A stretch of 64,000 bases of DNA from an uncultured Pseudomonadales bacterium (lineage in GTDB: Bacteria > Patescibacteriota > Microgenomatia > UBA1400 > PJMF01): positions 16,326 to 80,325 of the forward strand of contig CAZKVV010000005.1 in NCBI GenBank assembly GCA_964556485.1, written 5' to 3'. A program made the position numbers and the translations under genes. Shown here one piece after another: positions 11,457-64,000 of this stretch. Every line of letters starts with the position of its first letter. Position 1 is the first letter of the stretch. The notes beneath the pieces are model-generated. The model did no database searches and had not been told where the DNA came from. It saw nothing but the letters and a program-made list of their open reading frames with translations.

Positions 11457-11542
11457 ACTGTTAAAGAATGTTACCTACTATTTATTTTTTGCCCAAGGCA
11501 ATTAACCATAGGGCGAAATTATATACTATCCTCCCCGAGAAG

Positions 11543-11603
11543 TAAACCCCGCTTTTGATAAGAAAAGCGGGGTTTACCTCCCATCTTCATTACTGAAGAT
11601 GGA
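11543..11603 (-). terminator. Two tandem hairpins between tuf and rpsJ (ccatcttca-ttac-tgaagatgg and aaccccgcttttg-N-caaaagcggggtt); candidate terminator or attenuator
   Basis: Perfect inverted repeats seen directly. The T-run on the minus strand is weak. Confidence 0.45.
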
Positions 11604-44167: not shown

Positions 44168-44173
44168 GTAGAA

Positions 44174-45067
44174 CTATCGCAGTCTGTCAGTGAATACCTG
44201 TATATTTCCAGTCTGTACCTCTTGGTACAACTGAGTTTCTTTTCCTGTACGAACAGACTGTCTCTCCATAAACGGAATGCTTGCAGCATCCTGATACAGG
44301 ATTCCTACTGCAACTTTTTCGTCAAGATCCTCCGCAGCTGCTAATGCGGCAGCTCTATTTGTTGGATCATACCCTTCAGTATTAACGTTATACACACGTT
44401 GTTGATACCATTCGTGAGGCGTAGTCTTGTTGTATGTGGGACAATTTTGCATAATTTCCACAAAACTAAACCCCTTATGCTTGATTGCCGCTGTAAACAC
44501 TTCTGACATCATCCTGATATCTCCTGAAAAGACTCTTGCAGAAAAAGTAACTCCCAGAGATAGTGCGAACCGTTGTGGATGCAGTACTTCTGTAGTAACT
44601 CCATCAGGTGTAGAGTTCATCTTTACACCTTTTCTGGTTGTGGCAGAAGCTTGACCAGTGGTCAAGCCGTAGTTCTCGTTGTTATGCAGTAACAAAGTCA
44701 TGTCAAAGTTGGCTCTGATCGCATGGACTAAATGATTCACACCTTCGCCCAAAAGTGCGCCATCGCCACCTTCTGCAACAACAGTAAGACCAGTGTTTGC
44801 ACAATTAATGCCAGCAGCAAGGGGAATGACTCTACCATGAAGACCATGATATCGATACCCACCAATTTTATCTGATCCATTGCCATTACAACCAATATCA
44901 AAACACAACATTGCTTGGTGTGGTGTCACACCACAAGCAACTAATGCTTGTTTTACCGCAACTTGAATACCAAAGTTTCCACATCCTGGACACCAGGTTA
45001 ATGCATTAGCTGAAGTGTAATCACCTAAAGAGACTTGAGAAGTAGTGCAAGATCCGCATGCTGACAT
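44174..45067 (-). CDS. 2-oxoacid:ferredoxin oxidoreductase beta subunit (TPP-binding)
   Basis: WCPGCG motif and a TPP-binding fold. Confidence 0.85.
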   Translation of the reverse strand: MSACGSCTTSQVSLGDYTSANALTWCPGCGNFGIQVAVKQALVACGVTPHQAMLCFDIGCNGNGSDKIGGYRYHGLHGRVIPLAAGINCANTGLTVVAEGGDGALLGEGVNHLVHAIRANFDMTLLLHNNENYGLTTGQASATTRKGVKMNSTPDGVTTEVLHPQRFALSLGVTFSARVFSGDIRMMSEVFTAAIKHKGFSFVEIMQNCPTYNKTTPHEWYQQRVYNVNTEGYDPTNRAAALAAAEDLDEKVAVGILYQDAASIPFMERQSVRTGKETQLYQEVQTGNIQVFTDRLR

Positions 45068-45068
45068 A

Positions 45069-46817: not shown

Positions 46818-46846
46818 AGTTTTTTAGTACTGTATCAAACACACCT

Positions 46847-49009: not shown

Positions 49010-49128
49010 ACTTTTTCTGTTCCTTACAGCAGTATACGGGAGAATAGAAACTACTGTAAAGTTACGCTTTCCTTGACACCATGCTTGCCAACAGTTCAGA
49101 ATAGGCATGAACAACTAAAGGAATAAAG

Positions 49129-50046
49129 ATGAACAGAGCAACAACCGTTTCAATTATTGGCTGTGGAAATGTAGGCATGACTGCTGCTTACTCAATTTTA
49201 CATCGAGGCGATGTAGACCACTTAGTACTGGTTGGACGTGATTCTTCACAACTGATTGGTGAAGAACTCGATCTCGAACATGGTCTAAACTTCATGCACA
49301 CCGCAACCATTAGCTCTACAGATGACTACGCAGATATTGCTCATAGTGATGTTGTTGTTGTCACAGCTGGCGCTGCACAAAAACCTGGAGAAACAAGACT
49401 TGATCTAGCAAAGAAAAACATTGCAATCATTGAGGATATTGTTCCTAAAATTGTCCGCCACGCACCACAAGCTGTCATTCTAGTGGTCAGCAATCCTGTG
49501 GATATATTGACATACAAAGCACACCATATTTCTGGGTTGCCCAAAGGTCGCGTGTTTGGCTCTGGAACGACTCTCGACACCGCTCGATTCCGCTTTCACC
49601 TCGCTGAACACCTTGATGTGCACCCACGCAGCATTCATGCCTACGTCTTGGGAGAACATGGCGACAACTCTTTTCCAACGCTTTCGAGTGCAAACATTGG
49701 CGGACAAAATTTAAAAGATTTCCCTGGATTCACCGAGGAAAAAGCACTTAAGGCCTACCAAAAAGCCAGAGATGCTGCCTACACCATCATTCAGTCAAAA
49801 GGTGCTACCTACTATGCTATTGGCGCTGTGGTCTCACATATTGTTTCAACCATTTTGAAAGATAAGAAAACAGTCTTACCAGTATCAATTCCACTCCACA
49901 ATTACTATGGACATAGTGGCGTTGCCCTTAGTGTTCCTTGTATTGTTGGCCGCTCTGGGGTTGAGAGGGTGTTGACTACCCATTTATCCGCACATGAACA
50001 AATGCAACTACGCCAAACGGTGGAAGCACTCAAAGAGTTTTTATAA
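49129..50046 (+). CDS. ldh: L-lactate dehydrogenase
   Basis: IGCGNVG NAD-binding motif, GEHGD, and Gln at the substrate-specificity position (AGAAQKPGETR), which indicates LDH rather than MDH. Confidence 0.8.
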   Translation: MNRATTVSIIGCGNVGMTAAYSILHRGDVDHLVLVGRDSSQLIGEELDLEHGLNFMHTATISSTDDYADIAHSDVVVVTAGAAQKPGETRLDLAKKNIAIIEDIVPKIVRHAPQAVILVVSNPVDILTYKAHHISGLPKGRVFGSGTTLDTARFRFHLAEHLDVHPRSIHAYVLGEHGDNSFPTLSSANIGGQNLKDFPGFTEEKALKAYQKARDAAYTIIQSKGATYYAIGAVVSHIVSTILKDKKTVLPVSIPLHNYYGHSGVALSVPCIVGRSGVERVLTTHLSAHEQMQLRQTVEALKEFL

Positions 50047-51036
50047 ATTCTCAAATACATTTGCTCGGTATTGTGACCGAATTAACCCATCTATTACTGC
50101 TTGTTTATTATCTGGTATTGTATTTACCAATGCCTTAATATCCTCAAGATAATCAGGGGTATATCTTTTCGCTGGACGCAAAAGTGCCCAGTTGCCGTTG
50201 CTAATATCAATTTTTGTAATTCCAGCATCAAATGCATCTTCAAGTGTATTATTTAGTTCGAATCCTGTAGGAGAATACCAATGGCCCTCAAAAAATGTCT
50301 GACCAGATGCAGAAGTAAAAGTCTTTAAACATAATCCTGCACGCTTGCCAATAAATTTAACTGCCACATATTCATTTACAACAACTACCGCATCATTATT
50401 TAACGCTTGCAATAATCTTGGCTCAGATTCATCACATAACCACCAATTCCCATTGCTGACCTGAATGCTCATATCCATTTCTATAAGTTGTGGCCTTATC
50501 TCGGCGCGTAAAGCTTCGGGCAAATCGTATATTTTTAGTTGCGAAAGAATGATTGCTATCTGAAACTGATACGTTAAAACATCATCAAGTAGTATATCCA
50601 AAAGCGTAAGGATGAAATCGTTATTTAATTCTTTAACTATCTTAAAAAAATTGTCTTTATTTTGATATCTAAAGCCCTTGTAAATTTCATCTGTTTCAGC
50701 TTGAGAAAACATCAACTCTAAGAGAAACAGTAAGTCATCATTTTTGACCGTTAGCACTAATGCTTTTTTTAATTTTTCTTGATTGTCTTTAGAAAACGAG
50801 TTAATTACAGCATTCAGCACCTCATACCTACTTAAGCATCCTTGAGCTTTGGTTTCAACATACGACAAGGTAGGACCCTGGAAAGCACTTGTTGTTTTTG
50901 CTGCATAAAGAGTAAATTTGGGAAATACATGTCTAATTTGCAAACCAGACTCTCCATTTTTTGGGGGGGGATTATACTCTAGACCTTGAGTTGTAGCATC
51001 TCCATGATGTTTTTGGTCAGTGATATTTTCGCTCAT
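50041..51036 (-). CDS. hypothetical protein (331 aa) with an internal duplicated SNGNW-containing segment
   Basis: Repeats ...QVSNGNWWLCDESEPRLL... and ...DISNGNWALLRPAKRY... seen directly. Confidence 0.4.
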   Translation of the reverse strand: MSENITDQKHHGDATTQGLEYNPPPKNGESGLQIRHVFPKFTLYAAKTTSAFQGPTLSYVETKAQGCLSRYEVLNAVINSFSKDNQEKLKKALVLTVKNDDLLFLLELMFSQAETDEIYKGFRYQNKDNFFKIVKELNNDFILTLLDILLDDVLTYQFQIAIILSQLKIYDLPEALRAEIRPQLIEMDMSIQVSNGNWWLCDESEPRLLQALNNDAVVVVNEYVAVKFIGKRAGLCLKTFTSASGQTFFEGHWYSPTGFELNNTLEDAFDAGITKIDISNGNWALLRPAKRYTPDYLEDIKALVNTIPDNKQAVIDGLIRSQYRANVFENL

Positions 51037-51129
51037 AGTACAACAGCAAGTCTGATGATAAAGTAGCCATGAAATTCATCATATTCTGAGTTAAATTTAG
51101 AATCAAGAACATTTTTTTGCACCAACTAA

Positions 51130-51711
51130 CTAAATAACGGGAATTTCACCATTAAAGAAATTTGATTGAATTAATTCTTCACAACTAAGCAACAAATCAT
51201 CTAGAGAACCGGTATTGTGAATAGTGTGGTCGACTAACTCTAAGCAGGCTTCAACTTGTTGACCGCTTTCTTCCTCACCGACACCTTTTTCTCGTTGATT
51301 TGCCCGTAAAAATGATACTTTGGTAACGCCATCTTCACCACGATCGCTTGCGCGCTCTAAATAGCGCTGCATCCGCACATATTGTGGTGCAACTACGCCT
51401 AAAATAAATGCCTCAGAATGCTGACGTAAATACTCAACTTCCTCAGGATTTCGCACACCATCTATCACAACTTGGTCGTTATTTTTTGCTAGTTCGAGCA
51501 CGCGCTGGGCCAACACGGCTCCACCATGCTTCTCTCGTAATTCATTTCCTACATTTTGCAGATTCACTCGAGTAATTGGCAAGTCACGGTCAAGACATTC
51601 TTCTCTAATTGCATCAGAAAGTTTGTAGTACACAAAACCACGATCGACAAAGTGGGTAGAAATAGTACTTTTACCACTCGCAATGTATCCGACTAAGCCA
51701 ACAACTTGCAT
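51130..51711 (-). CDS. P-loop nucleotide/nucleoside-monophosphate kinase-like protein
   Basis: Walker A GYIASGKST, then VIDGVRNPEEV. Confidence 0.5.
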   Translation of the reverse strand: MQVVGLVGYIASGKSTISTHFVDRGFVYYKLSDAIREECLDRDLPITRVNLQNVGNELREKHGGAVLAQRVLELAKNNDQVVIDGVRNPEEVEYLRQHSEAFILGVVAPQYVRMQRYLERASDRGEDGVTKVSFLRANQREKGVGEEESGQQVEACLELVDHTIHNTGSLDDLLLSCEELIQSNFFNGEIPVI

Positions 51712-51732
51712 GAGGGTTGTTATACACTGAAA

Positions 51733-52812
51733 TTACGCTTGTTGAGTAGAGGGAATTGCAGGAGTGCCAGTTTGTTGCTGTTTGGCTTGGTATTCTTTGA
51801 ACAATACATCGGTTAATGCCCAGACTTCTTCTGTGGAAAAATGAGAACGTTTATACTGTATTTGAGTCTCATCACAAAGTAACGCAATGAAATCTTGGTA
51901 GGTTGCAAACTTATATCCATTTCCAATAAAAATATAACGAAATTTCTTGTCCATACTTTGTTGCTCAAACTTTTTTGTATTTATGAGAGAAAATGCGAGG
52001 TCTGGAGTAATGGCGCCTTGTCTTTCATGAACTCTTCTATTTGCTGGCACAACGAGATGTACTAACATAGTTTCGCTCATGCTTACTGTCTCAACTTTTG
52101 AAAGATTATACAAGCCTTTGTCTGCAAGCACGGATCGATGATTCTTTCCGGCATCACTGTTTAGCCAATTAATGAGTGTACGAAGCGCCTCTTTAAATCC
52201 GCTATCGAGTAACTGTGCGTACGCTCTATAATCAAGCATTCCTAATTTTGCCTCACCCAATACCTCGAATCGTACATTTCCAGCACCACTTATCAGGACA
52301 TAGGCAAGATCTGGGTTTTTTAGTCTTAATGGCACACCGTACTTTATCGGATTTTGCCAAAGCAAAAGCAGTTCTTCAGCAACTTTCAACCGGTATTCCA
52401 ATGCCTCCCGTTTTTCTTCCTTTTCGGCAGCATCTTCTAAACTGTCCAGCGCATCTAACTTCTCTAAACGAAACTCCGCTGCTGCAAATAATTCAAACAG
52501 TTTACCTGAGATCATTCCACGCTTATATTCATCTCCTTGTTCAAAAAATTCTTTTTCCACAATATTGACTACTGCTGTCAAAATATCAGGATGAGAATGA
52601 AACAGATTAACCAAAATTCGCAACTGTTTATGTCTATCTACTTTGTTCTCATAATGTCTTCCTCTTGATTCCAAAATTGTGAGAAAAAAGCTGGCAATTT
52701 GAGGTTGCTCATCAGAAATGATACGCAAGGTGTTTTTCAAATCCTGATCTTGATTCCCAAGAAGTTTGGTCATGCGAAGATACATTTGTGTTCCATTTTC
52801 ATTTTCAGCCAT
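51733..52812 (-). CDS. hypothetical protein (359 aa)
   Basis: Long ORF with no recognisable motif. Confidence 0.4.
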   Translation of the reverse strand: MAENENGTQMYLRMTKLLGNQDQDLKNTLRIISDEQPQIASFFLTILESRGRHYENKVDRHKQLRILVNLFHSHPDILTAVVNIVEKEFFEQGDEYKRGMISGKLFELFAAAEFRLEKLDALDSLEDAAEKEEKREALEYRLKVAEELLLLWQNPIKYGVPLRLKNPDLAYVLISGAGNVRFEVLGEAKLGMLDYRAYAQLLDSGFKEALRTLINWLNSDAGKNHRSVLADKGLYNLSKVETVSMSETMLVHLVVPANRRVHERQGAITPDLAFSLINTKKFEQQSMDKKFRYIFIGNGYKFATYQDFIALLCDETQIQYKRSHFSTEEVWALTDVLFKEYQAKQQQTGTPAIPSTQQA

Positions 52813-52876
52813 ACTATTACTCTACATCGTAAACATAGAGGGCACAAGAGAGTTACACCTGCTACACTAGCAATAT

Positions 52877-53146
52877 ATGCAACGAGGCGTCATAACATTT
52901 ACCACCCAAGAACAAAAAATTATTTACCAAATACTGCATGACTTTGTACCGGACCTTACCCAGCTTCAACAAAAATTTTTAGTTACTCAAACAGACGGTG
53001 AACTGGAACATTTGGATAGTATTGAACTCAGTCGCGATGAAGTCGAACTCATTTTGGATCAAATGCCTATTCCTTCAGGTGAAGAACCAGAAGAAGTCTC
53101 GCATATAAGATCGTTGTTATCAAGCTTTTTAAACCCAGTCAAGTAA
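52877..53146 (+). CDS. hypothetical small acidic protein (89 aa)
   Basis: ORF divergent from 52812. Confidence 0.3.
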   Translation: MQRGVITFTTQEQKIIYQILHDFVPDLTQLQQKFLVTQTDGELEHLDSIELSRDEVELILDQMPIPSGEEPEEVSHIRSLLSSFLNPVK

Positions 53147-53247
53147 ACAAAATGTACTTAACTGATACTTCTGCTACACAGCTTGACCATTCTATGCTTT
53201 AATGGCCTTTACGTACTAACAGGTAATCAATTGTAAGGAGATTAAAC

Positions 53248-54024
53248 ATGGCAAAATCTGAAAATCAGTACTCACTGAGTTCACTCATTGAGTTTCTTAA
53301 TAATAATTTCGTACTCATACTCATTGTGTTATTCTTTTTCGCAGGTGGATTTGTGCTCGGTTCTCTCTGGACTGAGAATCAATTACTTAAATCTGGTGGT
53401 ACAGCAGGTGCTGGCGCCGCAGCGGGTGCAGCAGCAGCTCCAGCTGGTCCAACCGGCCCAACTGAAGAACAACTCGCTTCTTTACCAGAAGTAAGCAATG
53501 ATGATCACATTCGTGGAAACAAAAATGCAAAAATTGTACTCGTAGAATATTCCGACTTTGAGTGTCCATACTGTCAGAAATTCACCCCAACTCTGGATGA
53601 AGTGTTAAAAGCATATGGTAAAGATGTAGCACTCGTGTTTAGACATTATCCACTCCCTTTCCATGCTAATGCTCAAAAAGCTGCTGAAGCTTCAGAGTGT
53701 GTAGCCAAACTTGGTGGTAACGAAAAGTTCTGGGAATATCATGACCTTTACTTTGAAAAGACCCCAGCTACTGGCACAGGTATCGCTGTTGCAGACATGG
53801 GTAAATTAGCAGGCGAAATTGGTCTTAACGCTACTGCTGTACAAACTTGTATCGATTCTGGTGAAATGGCTGAAAAAGTCACTAAGCAGATGGAAGCTGG
53901 TGCAGCTGCAGGTGTTAGTGGTACTCCAGGTACTTATATCGTCACTAAAGATGGTGCCAAAGCAATGATCCCAGGAGCACTTCCATTAGATCAAATTAAG
54001 ACTCAAATCGACATGTATCTGTAA
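53248..54024 (+). CDS. DsbA/BdbD-like thiol:disulfide oxidoreductase, membrane-anchored
   Basis: CPYC active site, N-terminal TM, and AAGGAG RBS 8 nt upstream. Confidence 0.8.
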   Translation: MAKSENQYSLSSLIEFLNNNFVLILIVLFFFAGGFVLGSLWTENQLLKSGGTAGAGAAAGAAAAPAGPTGPTEEQLASLPEVSNDDHIRGNKNAKIVLVEYSDFECPYCQKFTPTLDEVLKAYGKDVALVFRHYPLPFHANAQKAAEASECVAKLGGNEKFWEYHDLYFEKTPATGTGIAVADMGKLAGEIGLNATAVQTCIDSGEMAEKVTKQMEAGAAAGVSGTPGTYIVTKDGAKAMIPGALPLDQIKTQIDMYL

Positions 54025-54062
54025 GGTTTGCAGATAAGAGTTGAAAAATGACTTGAATATAA

Positions 54063-54096
54063 GATGCGGCGCCAACAGGCGCCGCATCTTTATTGT
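54063..54096. terminator. bidirectional rho-independent terminator gatgcggcgcc-aaca-ggcgccgcatc followed by TTTATT
   Basis: Perfect 11-bp GC-rich stem between convergent genes (DsbA-like and ferredoxin). Confidence 0.75.
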
Positions 54097-54329
54097 ACTT
54101 TGATAACCCGCACCGGACACGCATCCGCTGCTTCTTTATTTTCTGCGATATCTTCCGCAACCACTTTTCGCAAAAACATCCCTTTTTTTTCAACAGCACC
54201 TTCGAGATCCGACTTGCCATCTTCAGCCGACATTGTCCAATACTGAGGACTAATCAGGGCACACAATCCACACCCAATACAGTTTTTTCTGTCGTGGCTT
54301 ACGGTTGCTTTTACTATTGGTTCATCCAT
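54090..54329 (-). CDS. small ferredoxin (single [4Fe-4S]/[3Fe-4S] cluster type)
   Basis: CIGCGLC...CP motif; 79 aa. Confidence 0.7.
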   Translation of the reverse strand: MDEPIVKATVSHDRKNCIGCGLCALISPQYWTMSAEDGKSDLEGAVEKKGMFLRKVVAEDIAENKEAADACPVRVIKVQ

Positions 54330-54346
54330 AGTTTTATTGAAAGTAC

Positions 54347-55615
54347 TTAAAACCCATTATTCACAGTGACCACTTTATACAGTCTGTCTCCACGGCGAAC
54401 TTTTTGTGAAATACTGAATGTCACAACACTACCCTTTGGTGCTAGCTCTACTTCCTTTTCCTCAATAATTAACTTTGGAGCGGTACCTCTCACAACACCT
54501 GTCGTTTCACCAGTAATCAGGTACTCATCGGTGTTGGCAATAGTATTTTCTTGCGCAGTCACCTCTACCACCCCAATTTTTGAAAAGTAATTCGTTACTA
54601 CTCCCACCAATTCTCGTTTTTGGGTTGCTCTATTTCCATAGGCACCACTCCAAGCGACAAACGGTTTACCCAAGTAGAATCCACCACTCATGCCTCGGTT
54701 GTAGACAGTTCCCAGGCGCTTATTCCACTCCACAATCTTCTCTTGAGTGTACGTGCCAGCATTTAATGCATCCAGTGCTTCTCTATACACTCTAATCACT
54801 TTGTCGACATAATCTGCTGATCTACCTCTTCCCTCAATTTTGAGAACGGCAATACCGGTATCCACAAGTTCATCAAGCAGTCCTACCGTACACAAGTCTT
54901 CTGGACTGAGCACGTAATCATTTTCAACTTTTAATTGGGTATTTGTCTGTTCATCAATAATTTTGTAGCTACGTCTGCAGTTCTGTCTACACGCGCCACG
55001 GTTGGCCGAAGAATTATCAGTGAGCAAACTCATTCCGCATCGTCCAGAGATCGCCACACACATTGCTCCATGACCAAACACTTCAATCTCGAGTGGCCGG
55101 CCACTTCTACCAGTAATACCTTGCGCTTTAATTTCATCACATACGTGCTTAATCATGGGAACAGTCAGTTCGCGAGCTAACACAATGGTGTCTGAAAGCT
55201 GGGCAAAATACTTGACTGTTTCGACATTAGCAATTGAAAGCTGGGTGGAAATATGGACCTCTACACCAATCTCATTTGCATAGGCAATAGCTGCCATATC
55301 GGCAACAATAATTGCATCAATGCCATTGGCTTTAACTGCGTCAATAATGGCATATGCCAACTTCATATCATGATCGTATAAGAGCGTGTTGAGTGTTAGG
55401 TATGTTCTAACCTTGTGTTTTTGAGCAATTTTGGCAATTTTAGCTAGATCGTTAAAGTCGAAATTATTTGCCGCTCTGGCACGCATATTAAGTTGTGTAA
55501 TGCCAAAAAAAACTGAGTCACAACCCGCATTAATAGCTGCCTGCAAACTTTCAAATGATCCCACTGGGGCCATTAGTTCAACACTGTGTGTGACTTTTTT
55601 TCCTGATTTTTCCAT
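54347..55615 (-). CDS. peptidase U32-family protein (RlhA/TrhP/UbiU-like putative Fe-S hydroxylase)
   Basis: Conserved EIEVFGHGAMCVAISGRCGMS and CRQNC cysteines. Confidence 0.8.
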   Translation of the reverse strand: MEKSGKKVTHSVELMAPVGSFESLQAAINAGCDSVFFGITQLNMRARAANNFDFNDLAKIAKIAQKHKVRTYLTLNTLLYDHDMKLAYAIIDAVKANGIDAIIVADMAAIAYANEIGVEVHISTQLSIANVETVKYFAQLSDTIVLARELTVPMIKHVCDEIKAQGITGRSGRPLEIEVFGHGAMCVAISGRCGMSLLTDNSSANRGACRQNCRRSYKIIDEQTNTQLKVENDYVLSPEDLCTVGLLDELVDTGIAVLKIEGRGRSADYVDKVIRVYREALDALNAGTYTQEKIVEWNKRLGTVYNRGMSGGFYLGKPFVAWSGAYGNRATQKRELVGVVTNYFSKIGVVEVTAQENTIANTDEYLITGETTGVVRGTAPKLIIEEKEVELAPKGSVVTFSISQKVRRGDRLYKVVTVNNGF

Positions 55616-55713
55616 ACATTTTCCTAACTATAAGAAACTGTATTGTACTTTTTTACGTGCCAAAGCACAAATGTAGCTCCTGTCCACTGGTTCTAGTACG
55701 ATACAATACCGCT

Positions 55714-56649
55714 ATGAAGCAAAAAGAAATTGGCAGAACAGCATTTGAAACCTACTACACAGGTCTCTTTGCTGATGAACAACAAGCTGCCGCATTTTTT
55801 GCCGCACTTAACACTAAAAAACAGCCCGTGTTGCTTGTTGATCCCAAAAACCTGCCAAAACTGCAAAAACTCTGGCAAGAACAAGGCATAACTCTAACGC
55901 CTCTTGATTGGTACCCGCATGCGTACCTTTGGCCAAAGGAAGTGCCTATCAATACACCTTTACCAGGATATAACGAACATCTGTTTTACCCGCTCAATGC
56001 TTCTTCGCTCATTCCGGTGCAAGCACTCAGTCCCAAACCAGGTGACTATATCCTAGATGCCTGCGCTGCCCCCGGTGGTAAATCCCTAGCCATTGCCAAC
56101 CTACTAGGCGACTCCCATACTCTAGTAGCCAACGACCTCTCGCGCAGCAGGCGAGATCGAATGAAATCCATTTTTACCTCGCATTCAAAAGAAATTGCAG
56201 TCTGGGGCATGATGGCAGAACTTATTTGCAAACGATCACCTGAAGCATTTGACAAAATTTTGCTTGACGCACCATGCAGTTCGGAAGCACACATCTACAC
56301 CACCCCCGAAGAACTTACTAAATGGTCGCACAACCGTGTGATTTCACTCAAAAAGCGACAAGTTGGGTTACTGAGTGGACTTTGGCATGCACTCAAACCA
56401 GGAGGCATCTTGGTCTACTCAACCTGTGCGGTCACACCAGAAGAAAATGAGTGGGTTATTGCCACCTTTCTCAAGAAGAGAAAGGGTGAAGCAATCCTGA
56501 TACCTTGGACTGCCCAAACCCCTGGACAACTAGGCATAGCTGGAGACTACCCTGCTATGCTAGATCTAAACAGTGTGCGCAGAATTGCAGTCACTGAGGG
56601 TGAACTGGGACCAATGTTTGTTGCTGTACTACAAAAAAGCGGAGCTTGA
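55714..56649 (+). CDS. RsmB/NOP2/Sun-family RNA m5C methyltransferase
   Basis: SAM motif DACAAPGGKS, catalytic DAPCS and TC motif YSTCA. Start taken at MKQKEIG. Confidence 0.75.
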   Translation: MKQKEIGRTAFETYYTGLFADEQQAAAFFAALNTKKQPVLLVDPKNLPKLQKLWQEQGITLTPLDWYPHAYLWPKEVPINTPLPGYNEHLFYPLNASSLIPVQALSPKPGDYILDACAAPGGKSLAIANLLGDSHTLVANDLSRSRRDRMKSIFTSHSKEIAVWGMMAELICKRSPEAFDKILLDAPCSSEAHIYTTPEELTKWSHNRVISLKKRQVGLLSGLWHALKPGGILVYSTCAVTPEENEWVIATFLKKRKGEAILIPWTAQTPGQLGIAGDYPAMLDLNSVRRIAVTEGELGPMFVAVLQKSGA

Positions 56650-56668
56650 GAGCTCCGCTTTCTTCGTG
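56637..56668. terminator. bidirectional terminator aagcggagc-ttga-gagctccgctt with flanking T-runs on both strands
   Basis: Inverted repeat seen directly between convergent genes. Confidence 0.7.
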
Positions 56669-56709
56669 TCTGACCGACACGGCAATGAGATTTTTTCTGA
56701 GAAAAAAAG

Positions 56710-57198
56710 CTACCTGTGCATTTTCCGTGCAGACCTTCCAGGCTGTAATTCGCCCATAATGGTTTGCCAATCAATGCCTTGAGACTCCGCCCAAGCTTTC
56801 AATTCATCGCGTTCTGTCTTGAAATGCTCTTGGCGTTCCTCGCGATTCATATCTTGCAGAGCAGCGTGTTCTGTCCGTAGCTCCTCATGCTTAGCAATGA
56901 TTGCTGCCTTTTGTGCCTCTGAGATCTTCCCAGCGGTAACGAGTGCAGAGAGTTTTTCTGTAAACTGAGCATTCATGTCTTCATGACGCTCTTCCCGATA
57001 TTCATCGAATACCGCTTCGACCTCCGACTGTTGTAAGCCAAACCGCTCAGCAATCCTCTGAGTTAGACCCTGAGCTGGGCTGGTATCCGTAACAGCCTGC
57101 ACCGCTTGTGCAGAAGCTGCTACGACACCAGTACCTATTACAATCGCCAAGGCTGGAAGCAGTATGTTTTTATTAATGTGCATATCTAGTCCTTTCAC
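56710..57198 (-). CDS. secreted helical protein, possibly LTxxQ/Spy-CpxP-like
   Basis: Signal peptide ...ASAQAVQA, then LTQRIAERFG and ISEAQKAAII motifs. It lies downstream of the two-component system in the same orientation. Confidence 0.35.
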   Translation of the reverse strand: MKGLDMHINKNILLPALAIVIGTGVVAASAQAVQAVTDTSPAQGLTQRIAERFGLQQSEVEAVFDEYREERHEDMNAQFTEKLSALVTAGKISEAQKAAIIAKHEELRTEHAALQDMNREERQEHFKTERDELKAWAESQGIDWQTIMGELQPGRSARKMHR

Positions 57199-57257
57199 TA
57201 CTAGCTCTTTTCTACTAAGTGCTAGTGTAAAGATCGTTTCTGAGAATACCCTGAAAA

Positions 57258-58316
57258 TTAAGAAACAGCTGTTCTTGGAAGGTTGACCACAAAGGCAGCT
57301 CCACCAAGTTTGCTCTCTTGTGCCGAAATAGTACCGCCATGTAGTTCAACAATTTCTTTGGCTACTGAAAGGCCCAGTCCAAAGCCACCAGCCCTTCTCG
57401 AACGCGCAACATCAGCCCTAAAAAATCGATCAAATAATCGCTCTCTATCTTTTCCTGAAATACCACTGCCAGAGTCAGCAACCATAATTTGCACGTCTCG
57501 CAAACGCTTTTGAATAGTCAATTCAACCGTTCCTTTTTGTGGAGTATATTTACTGGCATTATCAAGCAAAATCGTAATCAATTCCTTAATTTTGTCAGCA
57601 TCAAACTGAGCTTTTGTGAGTGTTATTTTAGTGCTGAAGGTAATTTCCTTTTCAGTAAAGACAGCATTAAATTTCTTAGTTGTTTTCTCGACAAAATCGG
57701 CAAGCACAACCGTAGACAAATGCAGTTGTTTCCGCGAGCTTTGATAGGTTGCTAACTCAAGCAATTTAGTCACCAACCGCTCTAAATTTTTGACTTCATC
57801 TAAGTTATCTTCAATCAGCTCCTGAGCTTCCTTTAAACTTGGTTTTTTTGAGAGCCCAAATACTTCAAGTGATGTTTTGAGAGCAGTAATGGGAGTCCGC
57901 AGTTCGTGAGAAGCATCAGCAACAAACCGACGCTGCTCTTCCATCGCAATCTGAATTGGTCGAAGTGTCTTTCCAGCCAATAAATATCCAGCGCCTGCGC
58001 TAAAAACTAAAATAATGCCATTAATAACAAGTAGGTGAAACTTAATCGTGTGTTTTGCTTCCTTGAGTTCTTGATCTAAAATTTGACGTTTCAGTGCTTG
58101 TTGTAAACCTGGATCCAGCTTCTCCAACCGTTCAGACAAATACTCTGGCAGCACAATGCCACGCTCTTGAGCCAATACTCTCAGCTGCGTTCGTGACAAG
58201 CCACGTTCTAATTCGCGCACAAACGAAAAATACAGCGCGGTACTAAATAAGGTACTGACACAAAAAATAATGAGAACATACCAATAGGTTAATTTTACTC
58301 TGGCAGAACGAAACAT
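57258..58316 (-). CDS. sensor histidine kinase (HisKA plus HATPase_c)
   Basis: H-box ADASHELRTPITAL and G-boxes DSGSGI / GGFGLGLS; two TM. Confidence 0.85.
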   Translation of the reverse strand: MFRSARVKLTYWYVLIIFCVSTLFSTALYFSFVRELERGLSRTQLRVLAQERGIVLPEYLSERLEKLDPGLQQALKRQILDQELKEAKHTIKFHLLVINGIILVFSAGAGYLLAGKTLRPIQIAMEEQRRFVADASHELRTPITALKTSLEVFGLSKKPSLKEAQELIEDNLDEVKNLERLVTKLLELATYQSSRKQLHLSTVVLADFVEKTTKKFNAVFTEKEITFSTKITLTKAQFDADKIKELITILLDNASKYTPQKGTVELTIQKRLRDVQIMVADSGSGISGKDRERLFDRFFRADVARSRRAGGFGLGLSVAKEIVELHGGTISAQESKLGGAAFVVNLPRTAVS

Positions 58317-58993
58317 TACGCCTTCCCAAGCGAGTAACCAAATCCTCGCACTGTATAGATGAGTGTAGGCAACTGAGGAAACGGTTTCTCCAGTTTACTG
58401 CGCAAATACCCTAAGTATACTTCGGCGGTGTTTGGCAACACATCTGCATCAAACTCCCAAACATGTGACAACAACTGTTCTTTAGACAACACCGTTTCTT
58501 TATTTTGCAGTAAATACGCAAGCAGCGCAAACTCACGCTTGGTAAGGGAAATACTGGTGCCTGCCCTGGTAACTGAGGCTTTGGCAGTATCAAGTTCTAC
58601 ATCCTGATACTTGAGTATTGCTCCCATCAACTGCTGTGGTCTTCTAGCAAGTGCTTTGACCCGCGCAACTAACTCTTCAAAAGCAAATGGCTTGGGTAAA
58701 TAGTCATCAGCACCAATAGTTAAACCAGCCACTCGATCATCCACCTCACCCTTGGCAGTAAGCATCAAAATGGGAGTGGTGATATTCTCGGCACGAAGTT
58801 CGCGACAAATCGTTAATCCATCCATACTTGGCAACATCAAATCAAGAATAATCACGCTGTATGGCTCAGTTGCAGCTAAATCGTAGCCCTGTTGGCCGTC
58901 CAATGCGATATCTACAGAATACCCATGGGCGGTTAAACCTTTCTGTATTGCTTGTGCAATCCGCTGTGTATCTTCGATAACAAGTATTCGCAT
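58316..58993 (-). CDS. OmpR-family response regulator
   Basis: MRILVIEDTQ receiver domain plus a winged-helix C-terminal domain. Start taken at 58993. Confidence 0.85.
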   Translation of the reverse strand: MRILVIEDTQRIAQAIQKGLTAHGYSVDIALDGQQGYDLAATEPYSVIILDLMLPSMDGLTICRELRAENITTPILMLTAKGEVDDRVAGLTIGADDYLPKPFAFEELVARVKALARRPQQLMGAILKYQDVELDTAKASVTRAGTSISLTKREFALLAYLLQNKETVLSKEQLLSHVWEFDADVLPNTAEVYLGYLRSKLEKPFPQLPTLIYTVRGFGYSLGKA

Positions 58994-59055
58994 GGTCACA
59001 CTAGAGTATAACAAAATGCTGAGAGTTTGCTGAAAATGACTCAATCCCACTTTGC

Positions 59056-59085
59056 TTGCTTTCTGTTCCCTGTCTGTGGTATACT
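59056..59085 (+). promoter_or_regulatory. Candidate promoter TTGCTT-18 nt-TGgTATACT upstream of typA
   Basis: ttgcttgctttctgttccctgtctgtggtatact seen directly. Confidence 0.45.
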
Positions 59086-59148
59086 ATAGGTTCTGCCTTA
59101 AAGCCGTCATTAGAGCCTTAGGCTCTACTTTTTTTGAAACACACCTTT

Positions 59149-60966
59149 ATGTCAAAACACATTAGGAATATTGCCGTTATCGCCCACGTTGACCATGGGA
59201 AAACTACCCTGGTAGATGCGCTTCTCAAACAGACTCACACTTTCCGTGACAACCAACGCGAAATGCATGAAGAGCGCATTATGGATAGTAATGACCTCGA
59301 GCGAGAGCGCGGTATTACCATTTTGGCAAAAAACTGTGCAATTGAATACAAAGGTACGACTGTCAACATTATTGATACTCCAGGACACGCCGATTTTTCT
59401 GGCGAAGTTGAACGCACACTTTCTATGGCGAGTGGTGCTCTCCTTATCATTGATGCTCAAGAGGGACCAATGCCTCAGTCACGTTTTGTGCTCAAAAAAG
59501 CTTTAGCACTTGGCTTAAAAGTGATTGTGGTTATCAACAAAATTGATAAACCATTTGCTCGTGTTGAAACAGTCATGACCAAAATCGATGACTTGTTCTT
59601 AGAGCTCGCCCACGACGAAGAACAGCTTAAATTTATTACCATGTTTGCAATTGCGCGTACTGGAAAAGTATTTGCAACCATGCCAGATGATTTTGAAGCT
59701 CCGGGAACTGTTGAACCACTCCTTGAAACCATCCTTAGAGAAATTCCAGCTCCTGATGCAGACGTAACTTCTCCATTCAAAATGGTGGTATCTACTCTCG
59801 ACTATGATGCTCACAAAGGCAGAATCGTTATCGGTAAAATTCATCAAGGAACCATCAAACCAAAAAGCAGTGTTATCATGACCGATGCTCCTACCAAAAA
59901 ACTCCAAATTGAGAGTGTAATGCTTTCACAGGGTCTTGGTAGACGTCAGGTTGAAGAAGCCTCAGCGGGCGACATCGTTGCCCTCACCGGCATCACTGAT
60001 GTCAGCATTGGTGCGACGCTTTCTGACCCAAGTGACACTACTAGTCTTAATAGTATTGAAATTTCTGAACCAACTCTTCACATGAACATGGGATCTAATA
60101 CATCTCCATTCACCGGTAAAGAGGGTGAGTTTAGCACCAGTCGACAACTAGAGGAGCGCTTGGACCGTGAGCTTGAAAGTAATCTCTCTCTCCGCGTGGA
60201 AAAACTCCCCAATGCTCAATTTAAGCTTTCTGGTCGTGGTGAACTTCATCTTTCCATTTTGCTTGAAAACATGCGCCGTGAAGGGTACGAAATGGAAGTG
60301 AGTAAACCTCAGGTTATTACTAAATCTATTAACGGTGTAACTTCAGAACCTATCGAAGAAGTGAGTGTCATTGTTCCAACAGAATATACCGGAACAATCA
60401 ACCAAGAACTAGGAAAACGTTTTGGCGAGATGCTCAAAATGGAGCCTATTTCTGATACTGAAGTTGAGTTCCAATATAAAATGACAAGTCGATCACTCAT
60501 TGGTCTACGTAGTACACTGCTTACCTTAACCAAAGGAACCGTGTTGCTTAGTAGTCAACTCATTGGCTACGCTCCTGTTGGCAGAGATTTGCCACAGCTT
60601 CGCAATGGTGCCTTGCTTGCTTCAGAAACTGGTGTCGTTTCAGGATATGGACTGAATGCGGCCCAAGAACGTGGCATTACGTTTGTTAACCCTGGTGATG
60701 CCATCTACGAAGGTCAAGTCATTGGCTTAAATGCTAAAAAAGAGGATATCGAAGTCAACGTCTGTAAAGGCAAAAAACTCACTAATGTGCGTTCCAAAGC
60801 TTCGGACGGTATTCTTCACATCGTACCTCCAATTGTCATGAGTCTCGAGCAATCATTAGAGTTTATTAATGACGAAGAATTACTTGAAATAACACCAAAA
60901 TCACTGCGCGTTCGCAAACGATTCTTAACCGAAAACGATCGCAAGCGCAACCGCCGCAGAGACTAA
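59149..60966 (+). CDS. typA: translational GTPase TypA/BipA
   Basis: [25 protein letters not shown]. The ATG at 59149 is preferred over the TTG at 59134. Confidence 0.92.
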   Translation: MSKHIRNIAVIAHVDHGKTTLVDALLKQTHTFRDNQREMHEERIMDSNDLERERGITILAKNCAIEYKGTTVNIIDTPGHADFSGEVERTLSMASGALLIIDAQEGPMPQSRFVLKKALALGLKVIVVINKIDKPFARVETVMTKIDDLFLELAHDEEQLKFITMFAIARTGKVFATMPDDFEAPGTVEPLLETILREIPAPDADVTSPFKMVVSTLDYDAHKGRIVIGKIHQGTIKPKSSVIMTDAPTKKLQIESVMLSQGLGRRQVEEASAGDIVALTGITDVSIGATLSDPSDTTSLNSIEISEPTLHMNMGSNTSPFTGKEGEFSTSRQLEERLDRELESNLSLRVEKLPNAQFKLSGRGELHLSILLENMRREGYEMEVSKPQVITKSINGVTSEPIEEVSVIVPTEYTGTINQELGKRFGEMLKMEPISDTEVEFQYKMTSRSLIGLRSTLLTLTKGTVLLSSQLIGYAPVGRDLPQLRNGALLASETGVVSGYGLNAAQERGITFVNPGDAIYEGQVIGLNAKKEDIEVNVCKGKKLTNVRSKASDGILHIVPPIVMSLEQSLEFINDEELLEITPKSLRVRKRFLTENDRKRNRRRD

Positions 60967-60995
60967 CCAAGTAACCGTGGTATAGTGAGTTCACT

Positions 60996-61469
60996 ATGCT
61001 TACTATCAACTCTCTAGCACCCCTCGATGTGCCTGTTCTTACTTCTGAAGGTGTATCCACATCTCTACGTGACTACCTTGGTTCTTACCTGGTTCTCTAT
61101 TTTTACCCAAAAGATGCCACTCCTGGATGTACTCTCGAAGCCTGCAACTTTCGTGATGCTAACTCTGAGCTACAAAAAAGTGGTGTTACGGTGATCGGCA
61201 TTAGTGCAGATTCAGTCAAATCTCACCAAAAATTTGCTGAAAAACACTCGCTGCCTTTTCCACTGTTTTCTGACGAAAAAAAGGAATTAATTTCGGCATT
61301 TGGCGTTTTAGTGGAAAAATCTATGTTTGGCAAAAAATACATGGGAATTGAACGCAGTACCTTTGTCATTGATCCAAAGGGAAAAATTGTGCATGTTTGG
61401 CCAAAAGTGAATCCACTTGGCCATAGTGATGCAGTACTAACCTTCTTTCGGGACAAACTTAAGCGATAG
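60996..61469 (+). CDS. bcp: peroxiredoxin Bcp (thiol peroxidase)
   Basis: YFYPKDATPGCTLEAC active site. Confidence 0.85.
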   Translation: MLTINSLAPLDVPVLTSEGVSTSLRDYLGSYLVLYFYPKDATPGCTLEACNFRDANSELQKSGVTVIGISADSVKSHQKFAEKHSLPFPLFSDEKKELISAFGVLVEKSMFGKKYMGIERSTFVIDPKGKIVHVWPKVNPLGHSDAVLTFFRDKLKR

Positions 61470-61491
61470 CGAATTGACGCAACACCTATTG

Positions 61492-61525
61492 ACAGCTTCG
61501 GGTTTGGTTAGTGTAGTATGAGTGC
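61492..61525 (+). promoter_or_regulatory. Candidate promoter TTGACA ... TAGTAT upstream of the small-ORF/dinB pair
   Basis: ttgacagcttcgggtttggttagtgtagtat. No Cheo/LexA box recognisable. Confidence 0.35.
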
Positions 61526-61771
61526 ATGTACCAAATAATAGGCGAAACCATTTGGGTTGCTGGCGTATACAAAAGTTCCCAGTTTATTCCCAAAAAATTT
61601 AAGTGGCGAGACAAAGAGCTTCCCATTTCTACCATTACCCTTATTTCTGATGCCAAGGATGGAGCGATAAAAAAACGCTTCTACAGCGTTGTTTCTGGCA
61701 ATGAGGTGTATCGCCTAGAGTTTAATCGTGAATCCGAACAATGGTATTTACAAGAGTTATGGGTGGAGTAA
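61526..61771 (+). CDS. hypothetical 81-aa protein translationally coupled to dinB
   Basis: ORF ends 4 nt before the dinB ATG. Confidence 0.4.
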   Translation: MYQIIGETIWVAGVYKSSQFIPKKFKWRDKELPISTITLISDAKDGAIKKRFYSVVSGNEVYRLEFNRESEQWYLQELWVE

Positions 61772-61774
61772 GGT

Positions 61775-63001
61775 ATGCAAAAATCAATTCTGCACGTAGA
61801 TATTAACTCGTACTTTGCCACCCTGCTGCAACAAGAAAACCCGCATTTGCGGGGTAAACCTATTGGCGTCATAAAAGATGTAGGTCGCAGTTGCCTGATT
61901 GCTGCCAGTAAAGAAGCCAAAACGTATGGAGTTGCCACCGGCTGTCGCCTGCGAGATGCGCAAGTGCTGTGTCCTCAAATCCAGGCTATTCCTGCTACTT
62001 TCGAGCGATACTTAGATGCCACTAAAAGACTACAAAAAGTGTTTCAAGCTATTGCACCTTCCGTACACATCTATTCACTGGATGAAGCCTTTATTGACAT
62101 CACCGACTGCCGACACTACCTCTACCCAGACGCTCAACAGCTGGGAGTGGCAATTCAGAATCATATAAAAAATGAACTTGGCGAATGGGTAACCTGTAAT
62201 GTAGGTATTGCTGAAAATAGATTGCTGGCAAAAATAGCTTCAGAAACGACTGCCAAAGGCACCGTGTTGGAAATTACCAGCGAAAACAAAGATGCGCTGC
62301 TTGCCCGCACCACCTTTGATCAAGTGTGTGGCATTGGCTACCGCTTATCAAAAAAGTTGGCCCTACTTAACGTTACCGTTCCGTACCAGATTAGGTTTAT
62401 TGCGCGCGAAGACCTAGAAGCACTAGTGGGAACCTTTTGGACTAATGAACTGTACAAAATTGCGTATGGCCAAGAAACACATATGCTTAAACAAATTGAT
62501 CGGTACCAAGAACACATGAAAAGTGTTGGACGTTCTATTACTGGATATCGTTTGTACACCAAGGATAAGGAAATACAAAGTATTTTAGCCAATCTTTGCC
62601 TGGAAATTATCGACAAGATCCGTACCATGCACCTTGCCGGCAGACATATCGCCATTGGACTGTATGGCCAACAAACCAGTTGGCATACGCACCTTACCAC
62701 GCACTGTTCTGTCCTCCATGCCTCAGAACTTATTGCTAAGGTCCTTGATTTATATACGCAGTGGCCAAAAAACTTTAAAGTTATTAAGTTTGCGGTTCGT
62801 CTTTCTTTGCTCGAACCACATCGACAACCTCAGTTGCTACCGCAGTGGCAAACGCACGAAGCAGTACAAACAGCCCTCGATGCTATCAACAAAAAATATG
62901 GATTATTTACCACGCATCCCGCATCTATCGAAAAAAATGACTTAATTAGACCAGAAGTGACTGGCTTTTTGGGAGATAGAATGTACCAGTTGAGGGAGTA
63001 G
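61775..63001 (+). CDS. dinB: Y-family DNA polymerase IV
   Basis: ILHVDINSYFAT and SLDEAFIDIT motifs; 408 aa. Confidence 0.85.
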   Translation: MQKSILHVDINSYFATLLQQENPHLRGKPIGVIKDVGRSCLIAASKEAKTYGVATGCRLRDAQVLCPQIQAIPATFERYLDATKRLQKVFQAIAPSVHIYSLDEAFIDITDCRHYLYPDAQQLGVAIQNHIKNELGEWVTCNVGIAENRLLAKIASETTAKGTVLEITSENKDALLARTTFDQVCGIGYRLSKKLALLNVTVPYQIRFIAREDLEALVGTFWTNELYKIAYGQETHMLKQIDRYQEHMKSVGRSITGYRLYTKDKEIQSILANLCLEIIDKIRTMHLAGRHIAIGLYGQQTSWHTHLTTHCSVLHASELIAKVLDLYTQWPKNFKVIKFAVRLSLLEPHRQPQLLPQWQTHEAVQTALDAINKKYGLFTTHPASIEKNDLIRPEVTGFLGDRMYQLRE

Positions 63002-63030
63002 CAATGGAGAAACGCTAGTCTGGAGACGCA

Positions 63031-63060
63031 AAAAGACCCAGTGTAAAACTGGGTCTTTTG
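63031..63060. terminator. bidirectional terminator aaaagacccagt-gtaaa-actgggtctttt
   Basis: Perfect 9-bp stem with an A-run and a T-run between the convergent dinB and 63078-63608 genes. Confidence 0.75.
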
Positions 63061-63077
63061 TTAAACAGGGGTATCTA

Positions 63078-63608
63078 TTAGGCTTCGATCTCTTTCGAGA
63101 CCTCGGCCAAGGCCTCCATCAGGGGAGCCGGAGCCTTAGGGGCTTCGAACATGGTGACGACGGGTTTCCCGCCGACGTTAGCCATTTCGGCCAACAGACG
63201 GACTCGTTCGCCATCCTTATTGGTGATCCAGACCTTCACGGCAGAACCGTAAGGCAGGACGAACAACCCTTCCACCGAGTGCAGTTTGTTGGCGGGTTTT
63301 GCAATCCGTTCAAAAAACTTGTGCTCGATATTCAGACGCGACTTTTTCATCGCGCCCGCAATTGTTTCCACTTCAAAGCCCACGAACTGCCCCTTGGGGG
63401 CAACATGCGTGACGCGCCACCACACTGTGGGGGCGGTCTTTTCTTTGTTCGATTTGACAATTTTCCCCTGGATAAACCAGGGGTTAGGAACCAAATTGCC
63501 TTGTGAATCAACGGCGTCGGAAGAAATCTCCCCAACAAGTTGACGGAAGGTGGTTCCAGCAAAAATACCAGAATTGACTTTGTTATTATTTGCAGAAAAA
63601 GTAGCCAT
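63078..63608 (-). CDS. hypothetical 176-aa protein in a locally GC-rich (about 55%) segment; candidate horizontally acquired gene
   Basis: GC counted at 50-63% per 60-nt line against about 42% for the window, with GCC/GGC/CCG-rich codons. No motif recognised. Confidence 0.5.
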   Translation of the reverse strand: MATFSANNNKVNSGIFAGTTFRQLVGEISSDAVDSQGNLVPNPWFIQGKIVKSNKEKTAPTVWWRVTHVAPKGQFVGFEVETIAGAMKKSRLNIEHKFFERIAKPANKLHSVEGLFVLPYGSAVKVWITNKDGERVRLLAEMANVGGKPVVTMFEAPKAPAPLMEALAEVSKEIEA

Positions 63609-63650
63609 TGTTTTCTCCTTAAGAAAAAATGAAATCAGAATTTGTAGGCT

Positions 63651-63747
63651 GCCTCAAGGCCTACGAAATGAGTGAGGCAAGCTACAGTCGAGTTAACTTC
63701 GTTAGAAGTGAAAAAATCAACTGTACTTTGCCTCACTATTCAAGGCC
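63651..63747. repeat. approximately 97-nt imperfect palindromic element in a divergent promoter region
   Basis: gcctcaaggcc...agtgaggcaa (63651-63680) and ttgcctcact...tcaaggccg (63728-63748) are inverted copies around a GTTAAC centre. Confidence 0.5.
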
Positions 63748-63934
63748 GTATATATAGATATCCTGTTAACGAACATGTGTGTGTCGCAGTGCTGTTTGCT
63801 AGAAACAGAAGCGGCACAACAACGACTATTATAGCCTATAACTATTAGTTTGTCAAGCTATTGGAAATAATTGCTGCTCCATAAAGGCTATTCCTCGAGG
63901 AAAAAAGTGTGGTAGTATAGTTGCAAAGGAACCT

Positions 63935-64000
63935 ATGAAACACCTACTCAGCCTCACCACACTCGCTACCACATCCCTCTTACTAGCAGCTTGTTTGCCA
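63935..64000 (+). CDS. lipoprotein (N-terminal fragment, continues beyond the window)
   Basis: MKHLLSLTTLATTSLLLAAC signal peptide with a lipobox. AAAGGA RBS and TGgTAGTAT -10 upstream. Confidence 0.45.
   Translation, partial: MKHLLSLTTLATTSLLLAACLP

Follow-up and report, generated by a model that had tools for sequence, protein, structure and literature searches.

A putative horizontally acquired orphan gene cassette with a predicted compact, end-paired mRNA in a Patescibacteria chromosome

Messenger RNAs can be stabilised by a stem-loop at their 5' terminus, as in the ompA leader of E. coli and the aprE/ermC-type 5' hairpins of B. subtilis. Long-distance pairing of the 5' end with the 3' end has been described for the hok and aapA mRNAs (PMC6733600), and such end-to-end pairing has so far been documented mainly for tiny type I toxin mRNAs. 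Here we describe a single-gene cassette that lies next to dinB on the minus strand of a 64,000-nucleotide (nt) stretch of contig CAZKVV010000005.1 (the whole stretch is referred to below as the window), a segment of a Patescibacteria (candidate phyla radiation, CPR) chromosome. The gene encodes a protein of 176 amino acids (aa), and we hold with moderate confidence that it belongs to a horizontally acquired orphan expression cassette whose predicted mRNA is built to be compact and stable. The evidence comes from the composition and distribution of the gene and from the predicted structure of its transcript, which was compared with that of the only credible homologue, located on a 3.2-kb contig (locus L003).

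Composition and distribution of the gene

The GC content at third codon positions (GC3) of the 176-aa open reading frame (ORF) was 0.599, as compared with 0.18-0.44 for the 61 other ORFs in the window, and the order GC3 > GC1 > GC2 is the pattern of a coding sequence. A preliminary description of this DNA had reported a 176-aa ORF of about 55% GC in surroundings of about 42%. The ORF was confirmed on the minus strand together with a start codon and a ribosome binding site (RBS; Table 1), and its composition is indeed unlike that of the window (41.5% GC), but the figure itself was too high, given that the whole ORF has 51.6% GC and only its 3' two-thirds reach 55-56%. Promoter, leader and the first 30 codons are host-like in GC (GC3 0.30 for these codons), and the later codons climb to GC3 values of 0.57-0.77. 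The value for codons 41-176 exceeded the maximum of 0.456 found among 591 equal-length windows in other genes (mean 0.327, standard deviation 0.048). The codon adaptation index calculated against the ribosomal-protein, tuf and fusA genes of the window was 0.416 (z = -3.7), with every other gene at 0.51 or higher, and against all window genes the deviation corresponded to z = -5.2. Given that the ribosomal genes of the window are low in GC3 and favour A/T-ending codons, this indicated that the codon usage of the ORF is not of the native high-expression type.

Only one credible homologue (P0003; 29% identity, expectation value (E) 3×10−6, colinear over the full length) was obtained when 1.84 billion cluster representatives, which stand for about 15 billion proteins, were searched exhaustively with phmmer; four further matches (P0002 and P0004-6) were dismissed as repeat-protein noise. 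A word-seeded search of 5.8 billion clusters retrieved nothing except the 176-aa protein itself. The homologue is encoded at L003, a 3.2-kb contig where its gene adjoins lgt and lspA, and the two cassettes have no neighbouring genes in common. The two loci matched each other in tblastn (E about 1×10−12), and the nucleotide identity of the two coding regions was only 45%. The two members form an orphan protein family. When the two-sequence alignment was used to scan GTDB species representatives, JGI metagenomes and IMG/VR, no further members were detected, nor did tblastn against phage records and plasmids reveal any. A DNA pattern spanning the -10 box and the transcript start had no match in the metagenome or viral collections, and a looser promoter pattern gave only unrelated strong phage promoters and no new cassettes.

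The corresponding locus was also compared among relatives. In none of 53 related Patescibacteria genomes was a homologue of the ORF located within about 6 kb of dinB, and in the closest relative (L021) a lipoprotein gene comes 200 nt after dinB. From composition and distribution, horizontal acquisition into a Patescibacteria ('Pacebacteria'-like) chromosome appears to be the most likely origin of the gene.

The encoded protein is basic (isoelectric point (pI) 9.5) and hydrophilic (grand average of hydropathy (GRAVY) -0.12) and has neither a signal peptide nor a membrane segment. The 149-aa homologue is likewise basic (pI 9.1) and hydrophilic (GRAVY -0.48), with no membrane segment. Neither the single sequence nor a two-sequence profile gave a match in Pfam, NCBIfam, PHROGs, PADLOC or PDB, and in Pfam and PADLOC matches were absent even at E up to 1-10. 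The AlphaFold models reached a predicted local distance difference test score (pLDDT) of 47 for the single sequence and 53 for the two-sequence alignment, and the latter model, otherwise weak, contained a predicted seven-strand beta core at residues 61-153 (pLDDT about 70-80). Foldseek searches of PDB and BFVD returned only generic immunoglobulin-like beta-sandwich noise (E > 0.005, TM about 0.3). The product is thus predicted to be a small, basic, beta-rich cytoplasmic protein; that it might bind nucleic acids as an accessory protein of the mobile-element type, perhaps in defence or in a toxin-like role, is a guess made with low confidence.

Predicted transcript and its folding

The gene is preceded by a predicted sigma-70-type promoter with 12/12 consensus positions, which is the only such site within positions 44001-64000. 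Three perfect promoters were found in 654 kb of CPR DNA and two of these belong to the two family cassettes, in which the segment TTGACAAA-N7-TTATAGGCTATAAT is identical (L003 promoter, 1836-1864), non-consensus spacer bases included. Transcription is predicted to start near 63821 and to yield an mRNA of roughly 790 nt. In both predicted transcripts the elements follow the same order, namely a 5' hairpin, a UUAACAGG spacer, a long hairpin, the RBS AAGGAGAAAA with the AUG, the ORF and a strong terminator. With its predicted promoter, translation start and terminator, the cassette (about 63856-63031, minus strand) would constitute a self-contained single-gene expression unit.

The 5'-end hairpin has a counterpart in matching register in L003, where it starts with UGUUAUU, and as read from the two folds of the two sequences 2 of the 7 basal pairs are changed on both sides (G-C to A-U and G-C to U-A). 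Further downstream lies the palindrome of about 97 nt that had been noted upstream of the start codon. Folding showed it to be an imperfect hairpin of 97 nt with 24-nt core arms that are 83% complementary, located at about +73 to +169 of a predicted 5' untranslated region (UTR) of roughly 210 nt. No other inverted repeat in the 64 kb is as long, and the element occurs there as a single copy, with no att-like duplication. Its internal geometry had been misread in the preliminary description: the two arms quoted as partners do not pair with each other (TTGCCTCACT is the partner of AGTGAGGCAA, and TCAAGGCC occurs as a direct repeat at 63654 and 63740), and the centre is located near 63703 (CTTCGTTAGAAG) and not at the GTTAAC at 63692-63697. 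Of the roles that had been suggested for it (operator, recombination site or structured RNA), that of a structured RNA is supported, because the element lies inside the predicted 5' UTR and a hairpin is found at the equivalent position in the homologous cassette (L003, 1991-2036), whereas a recombination or att site is disfavoured by the lack of flanking repeats, attC cores and extra copies; an operator function is conceivable. The window leader folded with z = -5.7 to -5.8, no shuffle being as stable, and the L003 leader with z = -6.8; the hairpins of the two leaders could not be aligned with MAFFT/RNAalifold.

Some additional repeats were observed in the window leader (63643-63748, minus strand), where a 7-mer occurs in three copies (UGAGGCA, UGCCUCA, UGAGGCA) and GGCCUUGA is duplicated. 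The 3' arm of the long hairpin could instead pair with a copy further downstream, forming an alternative stem (63686-63673 with 63656-63643; 14 nt, 86% complementary). A riboswitch-like alternative pairing of the UGAGGCA/UGCCUCA copies was considered and rejected, as it is not kept in L003 and the alternative stem has no adjacent U tract. A 19-codon ORF was also rejected as a leader peptide, since on inspection it had no RBS and was not conserved.

The context AAGGAGAAAA-N-AUG is common to the window and L003. The translation start region of the window lies partly in a weak AU-rich local hairpin, and the unpaired probability of the RBS was about 0.45-0.49 in nascent, truncated and full-length transcripts alike. 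A strong bidirectional terminator had been described as bracketing the gene; the terminator is present but only at the 3' end, where it is shared with the convergent dinB. Its stem is flanked on both sides by A and T runs, so it can be predicted to act in both directions. A consensus terminator scan did not list this site, probably because the stem absorbs the T run.

In the full-length fold, the leader segment that contains the conserved spacer pairs with the 3' end of the transcript. In the window this pairing (63770-63754 with 63078-63060) comprises 16 bp with an energy of -15.4 kcal/mol and a span of about 700 nt, and in L003 (1928-1945 with 2528-2547, stop codon included) it comprises 17 bp with -19.3 kcal/mol and a span of about 600 nt. 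The pair probabilities were 0.62-1.00 in the full-length ensemble of the window and mostly at least 0.9 in both transcripts. In each transcript the 3' UTR was the best partner of the leader segment along the whole RNA. The window duplex energy was reached by 0.05% of shuffles, and the background frequency of such a pairing energy was 0.43% for the window and 0.02% for L003. The arm sequences differ between the two cassettes yet they remain complementary. These predictions suggest that the two ends of the mRNA may be clamped together. A conserved gating of the RBS by the end pairing was unsupported, since truncation of the 3' end left RBS accessibility unchanged in the window and the L003 RBS was more open when the ends pair, which is the opposite of the hok/aapA pattern.

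The coding region is strongly folded as well. Compared with dinucleotide shuffles, the segment 63078-63490 had z = -5.7 for the sense and -3.4 for the antisense strand, and the values for the whole ORFs were -4.55 (window) and -7.6 (L003), as compared with a mean of -0.41 and a minimum of -3.12 for 48 control genes. When synonymous codons were shuffled such that the protein and the codon counts were preserved, the values were -4.55 for the window ORF and -6.43 for the L003 ORF, and 0/100 shuffles were as stable. The G:C-ending codons do contribute to the fold. However, L003 folds even better with nearly host-like GC3, and structure alone therefore does not require a GC3 of 0.68. The excess in GC3 probably reflects a GC-richer donor, and part of it may serve RNA structure rather than being due to foreign origin. 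The perfect promoter, the end pairing and the folded coding region had been overlooked in the preliminary description.

Taking these features into account, we propose the following mechanism. The perfect promoter would start the mRNA, and the palindrome would act as the central hairpin of the 5' UTR and not as a DNA site. The 5'-end hairpin, the folded body and the helix joining the two ends, which would stack next to the terminator, would together give a compact, end-protected mRNA that would resist RNases and be long-lived, such that its product would become abundant. The helix between the ends would be opened by a ribosome that arrives at the stop codon. The GC3-rich codons, brought from a GC-richer donor, would also supply G:C pairs for the fold. 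Under this model a long-lived and abundant message is likely.

Table 1. Positions in the window of the cassette elements and the flanking genes (elements of the transcript are predicted)
Feature	Position	Strand	Details
Sigma-70-type promoter	63856-63828	-	TTGACA-17 nt-TATAAT, 12/12 consensus; -35 box 63856-63851, -10 box 63833-63828
5'-end hairpin of predicted transcript	63776-63821	-	Starts UGUUGUG, 6 nt past the -10 box; from folds
5' arm of end-to-end pairing	63754-63770	-	GUUAACAGGAUAUCUAU, contains conserved UUAACAGG; from full-length fold and duplex energy
Long imperfect hairpin (palindrome)	63652-63748	-	Core arms 63737-63714 / 63694-63671; apical loop near 63703
Translation start region	63606-63634	-	U-rich tract, RBS AAGGAG 63620-63615, 6 nt, AUG 63608-63606
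ORF, 176 aa	63608-63078	-	ATG at 63608; RBS AAGGAG 63620-63615
GC3-rich, strongly folding coding part (codons 41-176)	63081-63488	-	GC3 0.684
3' arm of end-to-end pairing	63060-63078	-	From stop codon to beside terminator stem; from full-length fold
Intrinsic terminator	63031-63059	both	Common to convergent dinB; perfect 12-bp stem 63031-63042/63048-63059, 5-nt loop
dinB	61775-63001	+	Right-hand end of window, convergent with the 176-aa ORF
Lipoprotein gene	starts 63937		Divergent from the 176-aa ORF

Alternative explanations and genomic surroundings

Several observations weigh against a horizontally acquired cassette with a compact, stable mRNA. Start site, 3' end and fold of the transcript come from thermodynamic or sequence predictions, and the conservation arguments rest on two sequences. 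The L003 homologue has no compositional anomaly (GC3 0.46 versus 0.37-0.44). Strong folding is not unique to the cassette, given that one of 16 control genes (56710-57183) also reached z = -6.2 under synonymous shuffling, and the codon-aligned consensus fold of the two ORFs was weak (z = -3.1), with internal helices that are not clearly position-conserved. What is conserved inside the ORF is therefore the property of strong folding and not a demonstrable common architecture. As marks of insertion, no tRNA gene, integrase, mobility gene or flanking repeat was found at the cassette. Synteny downstream of dinB is lost in relatives at the distance available, and no strict empty site was observed. 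The recent horizontal acquisition put forward in the preliminary description is supported, in that neither the codon usage of highly expressed native genes nor the same locus in relatives contradicted it.

The alternative that survives best, possible but rather unlikely in our view, is a native lineage-specific gene whose GC3-rich codons were selected for a stable mRNA fold and whose rarity reflects the fast evolution of a small gene. The coding RNA beats the synonymous-codon shuffles in both family members, as this explanation would predict, but the fold is stronger in L003 (z -6.4 to -7.6), where GC3 is nearly host-like. The host-like GC of promoter, leader and first 30 codons, the 5'-to-3' gradient in GC3 that is also seen, although weaker, in L003, and the fact that mobility genes and insertion scars were not found are all compatible with a native gene. 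A native origin is harder to reconcile with the unrelated contexts of the two members and with the distribution of the gene, which was not found near dinB in 53 relatives nor in the GTDB species representatives scanned.

A further and still less probable reading is that the two cassettes represent a new class of gene unit, in which a mid-sized protein is encoded on a conserved, end-clamped and globally folded mRNA. Such an mRNA might act as an RNA of dual function, or as a transcript kept locked until processing or a ribosome at the stop codon frees it, and its role in CPR might be that of a toxin, in defence or in dormancy.

If the predictions on the mRNA hold, a bacterial mRNA for a protein of 150-176 aa would have its leader paired to its own stop codon and 3' UTR and its coding region folded as strongly as a structured RNA. 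It would provide a concrete example of stability or translation being controlled through mRNA architecture in CPR/Patescibacteria, a group whose post-transcriptional control has hardly been explored, and an RNA signature tied to an orphan protein family that could be used for finding more members. If the predictions fail, the cassette would be just another horizontally acquired orphan gene with a leader hairpin.

We consider it distinctly unlikely that the cassette is a toxin-type module similar to type I systems (hok, aapA), in which 5'-3' pairing would hold a very stable primary transcript locked until processing activates it, and in which an antisense RNA or another antidote would have escaped detection. 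The conserved 5'-3' pairing would fit such a module, but it does not involve the RBS, whose accessibility is independent of the pairing in the window and affected in the opposite direction in L003. A highly structured mRNA behind a strong, predicted constitutive promoter and the stand-alone, sporadic, orphan distribution would be expected as well, whereas the product of 149-176 aa is hydrophilic and not a short membrane peptide. Furthermore, no promoter-like site (at least 9/12) was found on the opposite strand within 62800-64000, and there was no toxin match in PADLOC or Pfam.

An even smaller chance is given to an explanation at the DNA level. In one form of it the palindrome would serve as an operator or a site of recombination; in the other, a small non-autonomous mobile element would be bounded by the 16-19-bp repeats at 63060-63079 and 63754-63770. 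Imperfect inverted repeats with the common core TTAACAGG do flank the ORF and the hairpin in both loci, and the patchy distribution of the gene is compatible with mobility. However, the homology between the window and L003 runs beyond the 5' repeat, taking in the promoter with its spacer bases and the hairpin at the 5' end in matching register, which is unexpected for transposon flanks and makes a DNA-level role of the flanking inverted repeats unlikely. No target-site duplication or flanking repeat of at least 8 nt was found, the 64 kb contained no second copy of either the palindrome or the repeat, and neither attC R''/R' core sites nor transposase or integrase neighbours were seen. The sense strands fold better than the antisense strands, suggesting selection on the RNA.

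The least probable explanation is that of a transcript serving chiefly as a large structured RNA, either non-coding or dual-function, with a secondary or spurious ORF, since, despite extreme fold z values across about 790 nt in both members, paired ends and a GC content above that of the host as for structured RNAs in AT-rich genomes, the frames of 176 and 149 codons each have an AAGGAG at ideal spacing, the proteins align colinearly over their full length (tblastn E about 1×10−12) at 45% nucleotide identity, GC3 > GC1 > GC2 holds, no Rfam match was found and the internal helices are not position-conserved.

The chromosomal surroundings of the cassette are of housekeeping character. The window includes the S10-spc ribosomal protein cluster, tuf, fusA and rpoBC, and the relatives of its dinB (41-68% identity) come nearly all from 'Pacebacteria', Paceibacterota or Patescibacteria metagenome-assembled genomes. 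The cassette is located between dinB and the lipoprotein gene, and typA, bcp, DUF6504-dinB and the lipoprotein gene are its neighbours. The cassette sequence and both junctions to the host genes recur at 100% identity in two other public assemblies, and the cassette is therefore not an assembly chimera. In two independent assemblies it is found on very short contigs of 742 bp (L002, equal to window 62998-63739) and 1412 bp (L001, equal to window 62706-64117), and the ends of one of these contigs fall within the long hairpin and on the stop codon of dinB. The short contigs could be due to low coverage or to strain-level variation at the cassette borders.

Additional observations were made elsewhere in the window. 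An 81-aa DUF6504 protein (weak Pfam match, E = 0.0012) is encoded directly upstream of dinB (61526-63001, plus strand, for the pair). The pair is retained in 52/53 related Patescibacteria loci (L020-L072), often with overlapping or abutting frames, which suggests a conserved two-gene translesion-synthesis module. The product of the control gene at 56710-57183 (minus strand), which follows immediately downstream of a two-component system, is a secreted, helix-rich protein of 157 aa. In GC content (48.9%) the gene ranks second highest in the window, its dinucleotide-shuffle z is only about -3, and it may represent a second unusually structured mRNA in this genome. Despite the presence of the S10-spc cluster, tuf, fusA and rpoBC, no tRNA genes were found across the 64 kb, and no Rfam family, ribosomal-protein leader families included, reached its gathering score there. 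A strong 18-bp inverted repeat with 94% complementarity (11539-11580) lies between tuf and the S10 gene (minus strand), where it probably sets tuf apart from the S10 operon as a terminator or attenuator.

Comparison with known systems

Four types of known element were compared with the cassette and rejected. For type III toxin-antitoxin systems (ToxIN/CptIN/TenpIN), neither leader contained tandem direct repeats (Tandem Repeats Finder with minimum score 30, and self-alignment) and no ToxN/AbiQ-type profile matched in Pfam or PADLOC at E up to 1-10. For an integron attC site, no RYYYAAC...GTTRRRY pattern was present on either strand within 63000-63900, and the palindrome is located between the promoter and the ORF. 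For a miniature inverted-repeat transposable element or another element with terminal inverted repeats, inverted repeats are present but there was no flanking duplication of at least 8 nt and no other copy in the 64 kb. The Rfam freshwater-2 RNA (RF02980) scored 18.0 bits in both the window and L003, as compared with a gathering score of 49.9, with most of the middle of the model missing. This weak match falls at the same place in both leaders (window 63606-63664, minus strand; L003 2042-2083, plus strand) and arises from the common start context, a U-rich tract followed by AAGGAGAAAAcAAAUG, together with a small upstream hairpin. Freshwater CPR or phage genes may commonly use the combination of a U-rich tract with AAGGAGAAAAcAAUG as a strong context for starting translation.

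The cassette has the predicted signals of a monocistronic unit, i.e. a 12/12 promoter with a 17-nt spacer and a perfect 12-bp stem followed by a U run. In having its own predicted promoter and terminator, a deviant composition and a sporadic distribution it is similar to phage 'morons' and orphan accessory cassettes. Unlike phage morons, it is not located in a recognisable prophage and has housekeeping neighbours, and no relatives were found in PHROGs, phage records or IMG/VR.

With the mRNAs of type I toxins (hok/Sok, and aapA/IsoA of Helicobacter pylori) the cassette shares a strong promoter and a very structured, probably very stable transcript, as predicted here, as well as a 5' leader that pairs with the 3' end in a fold conserved among homologues (PMC6733600; predicted in the present case). 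An antisense RNA gene of type I was not evident, there being no promoter site of at least 9/12 on the plus strand within 62800-64000 in a consensus scan, from which weak or non-canonical promoters could escape. In contrast to the type I mRNAs, the pairing in the cassette does not mask the RBS, with the 5' arm located about 135 nt upstream of it, and the ORF, 3-6 times the length of theirs, specifies a basic, hydrophilic product rather than a small (under about 60 aa) hydrophobic peptide. With the ompA and aprE/ermC-type leaders the cassette shares a hairpin at the extreme 5' end of a long leader, a single gene and a strong RBS, and in contrast to these it would add a long central hairpin, an end-to-end pairing and a folded coding region, all of which are predicted.

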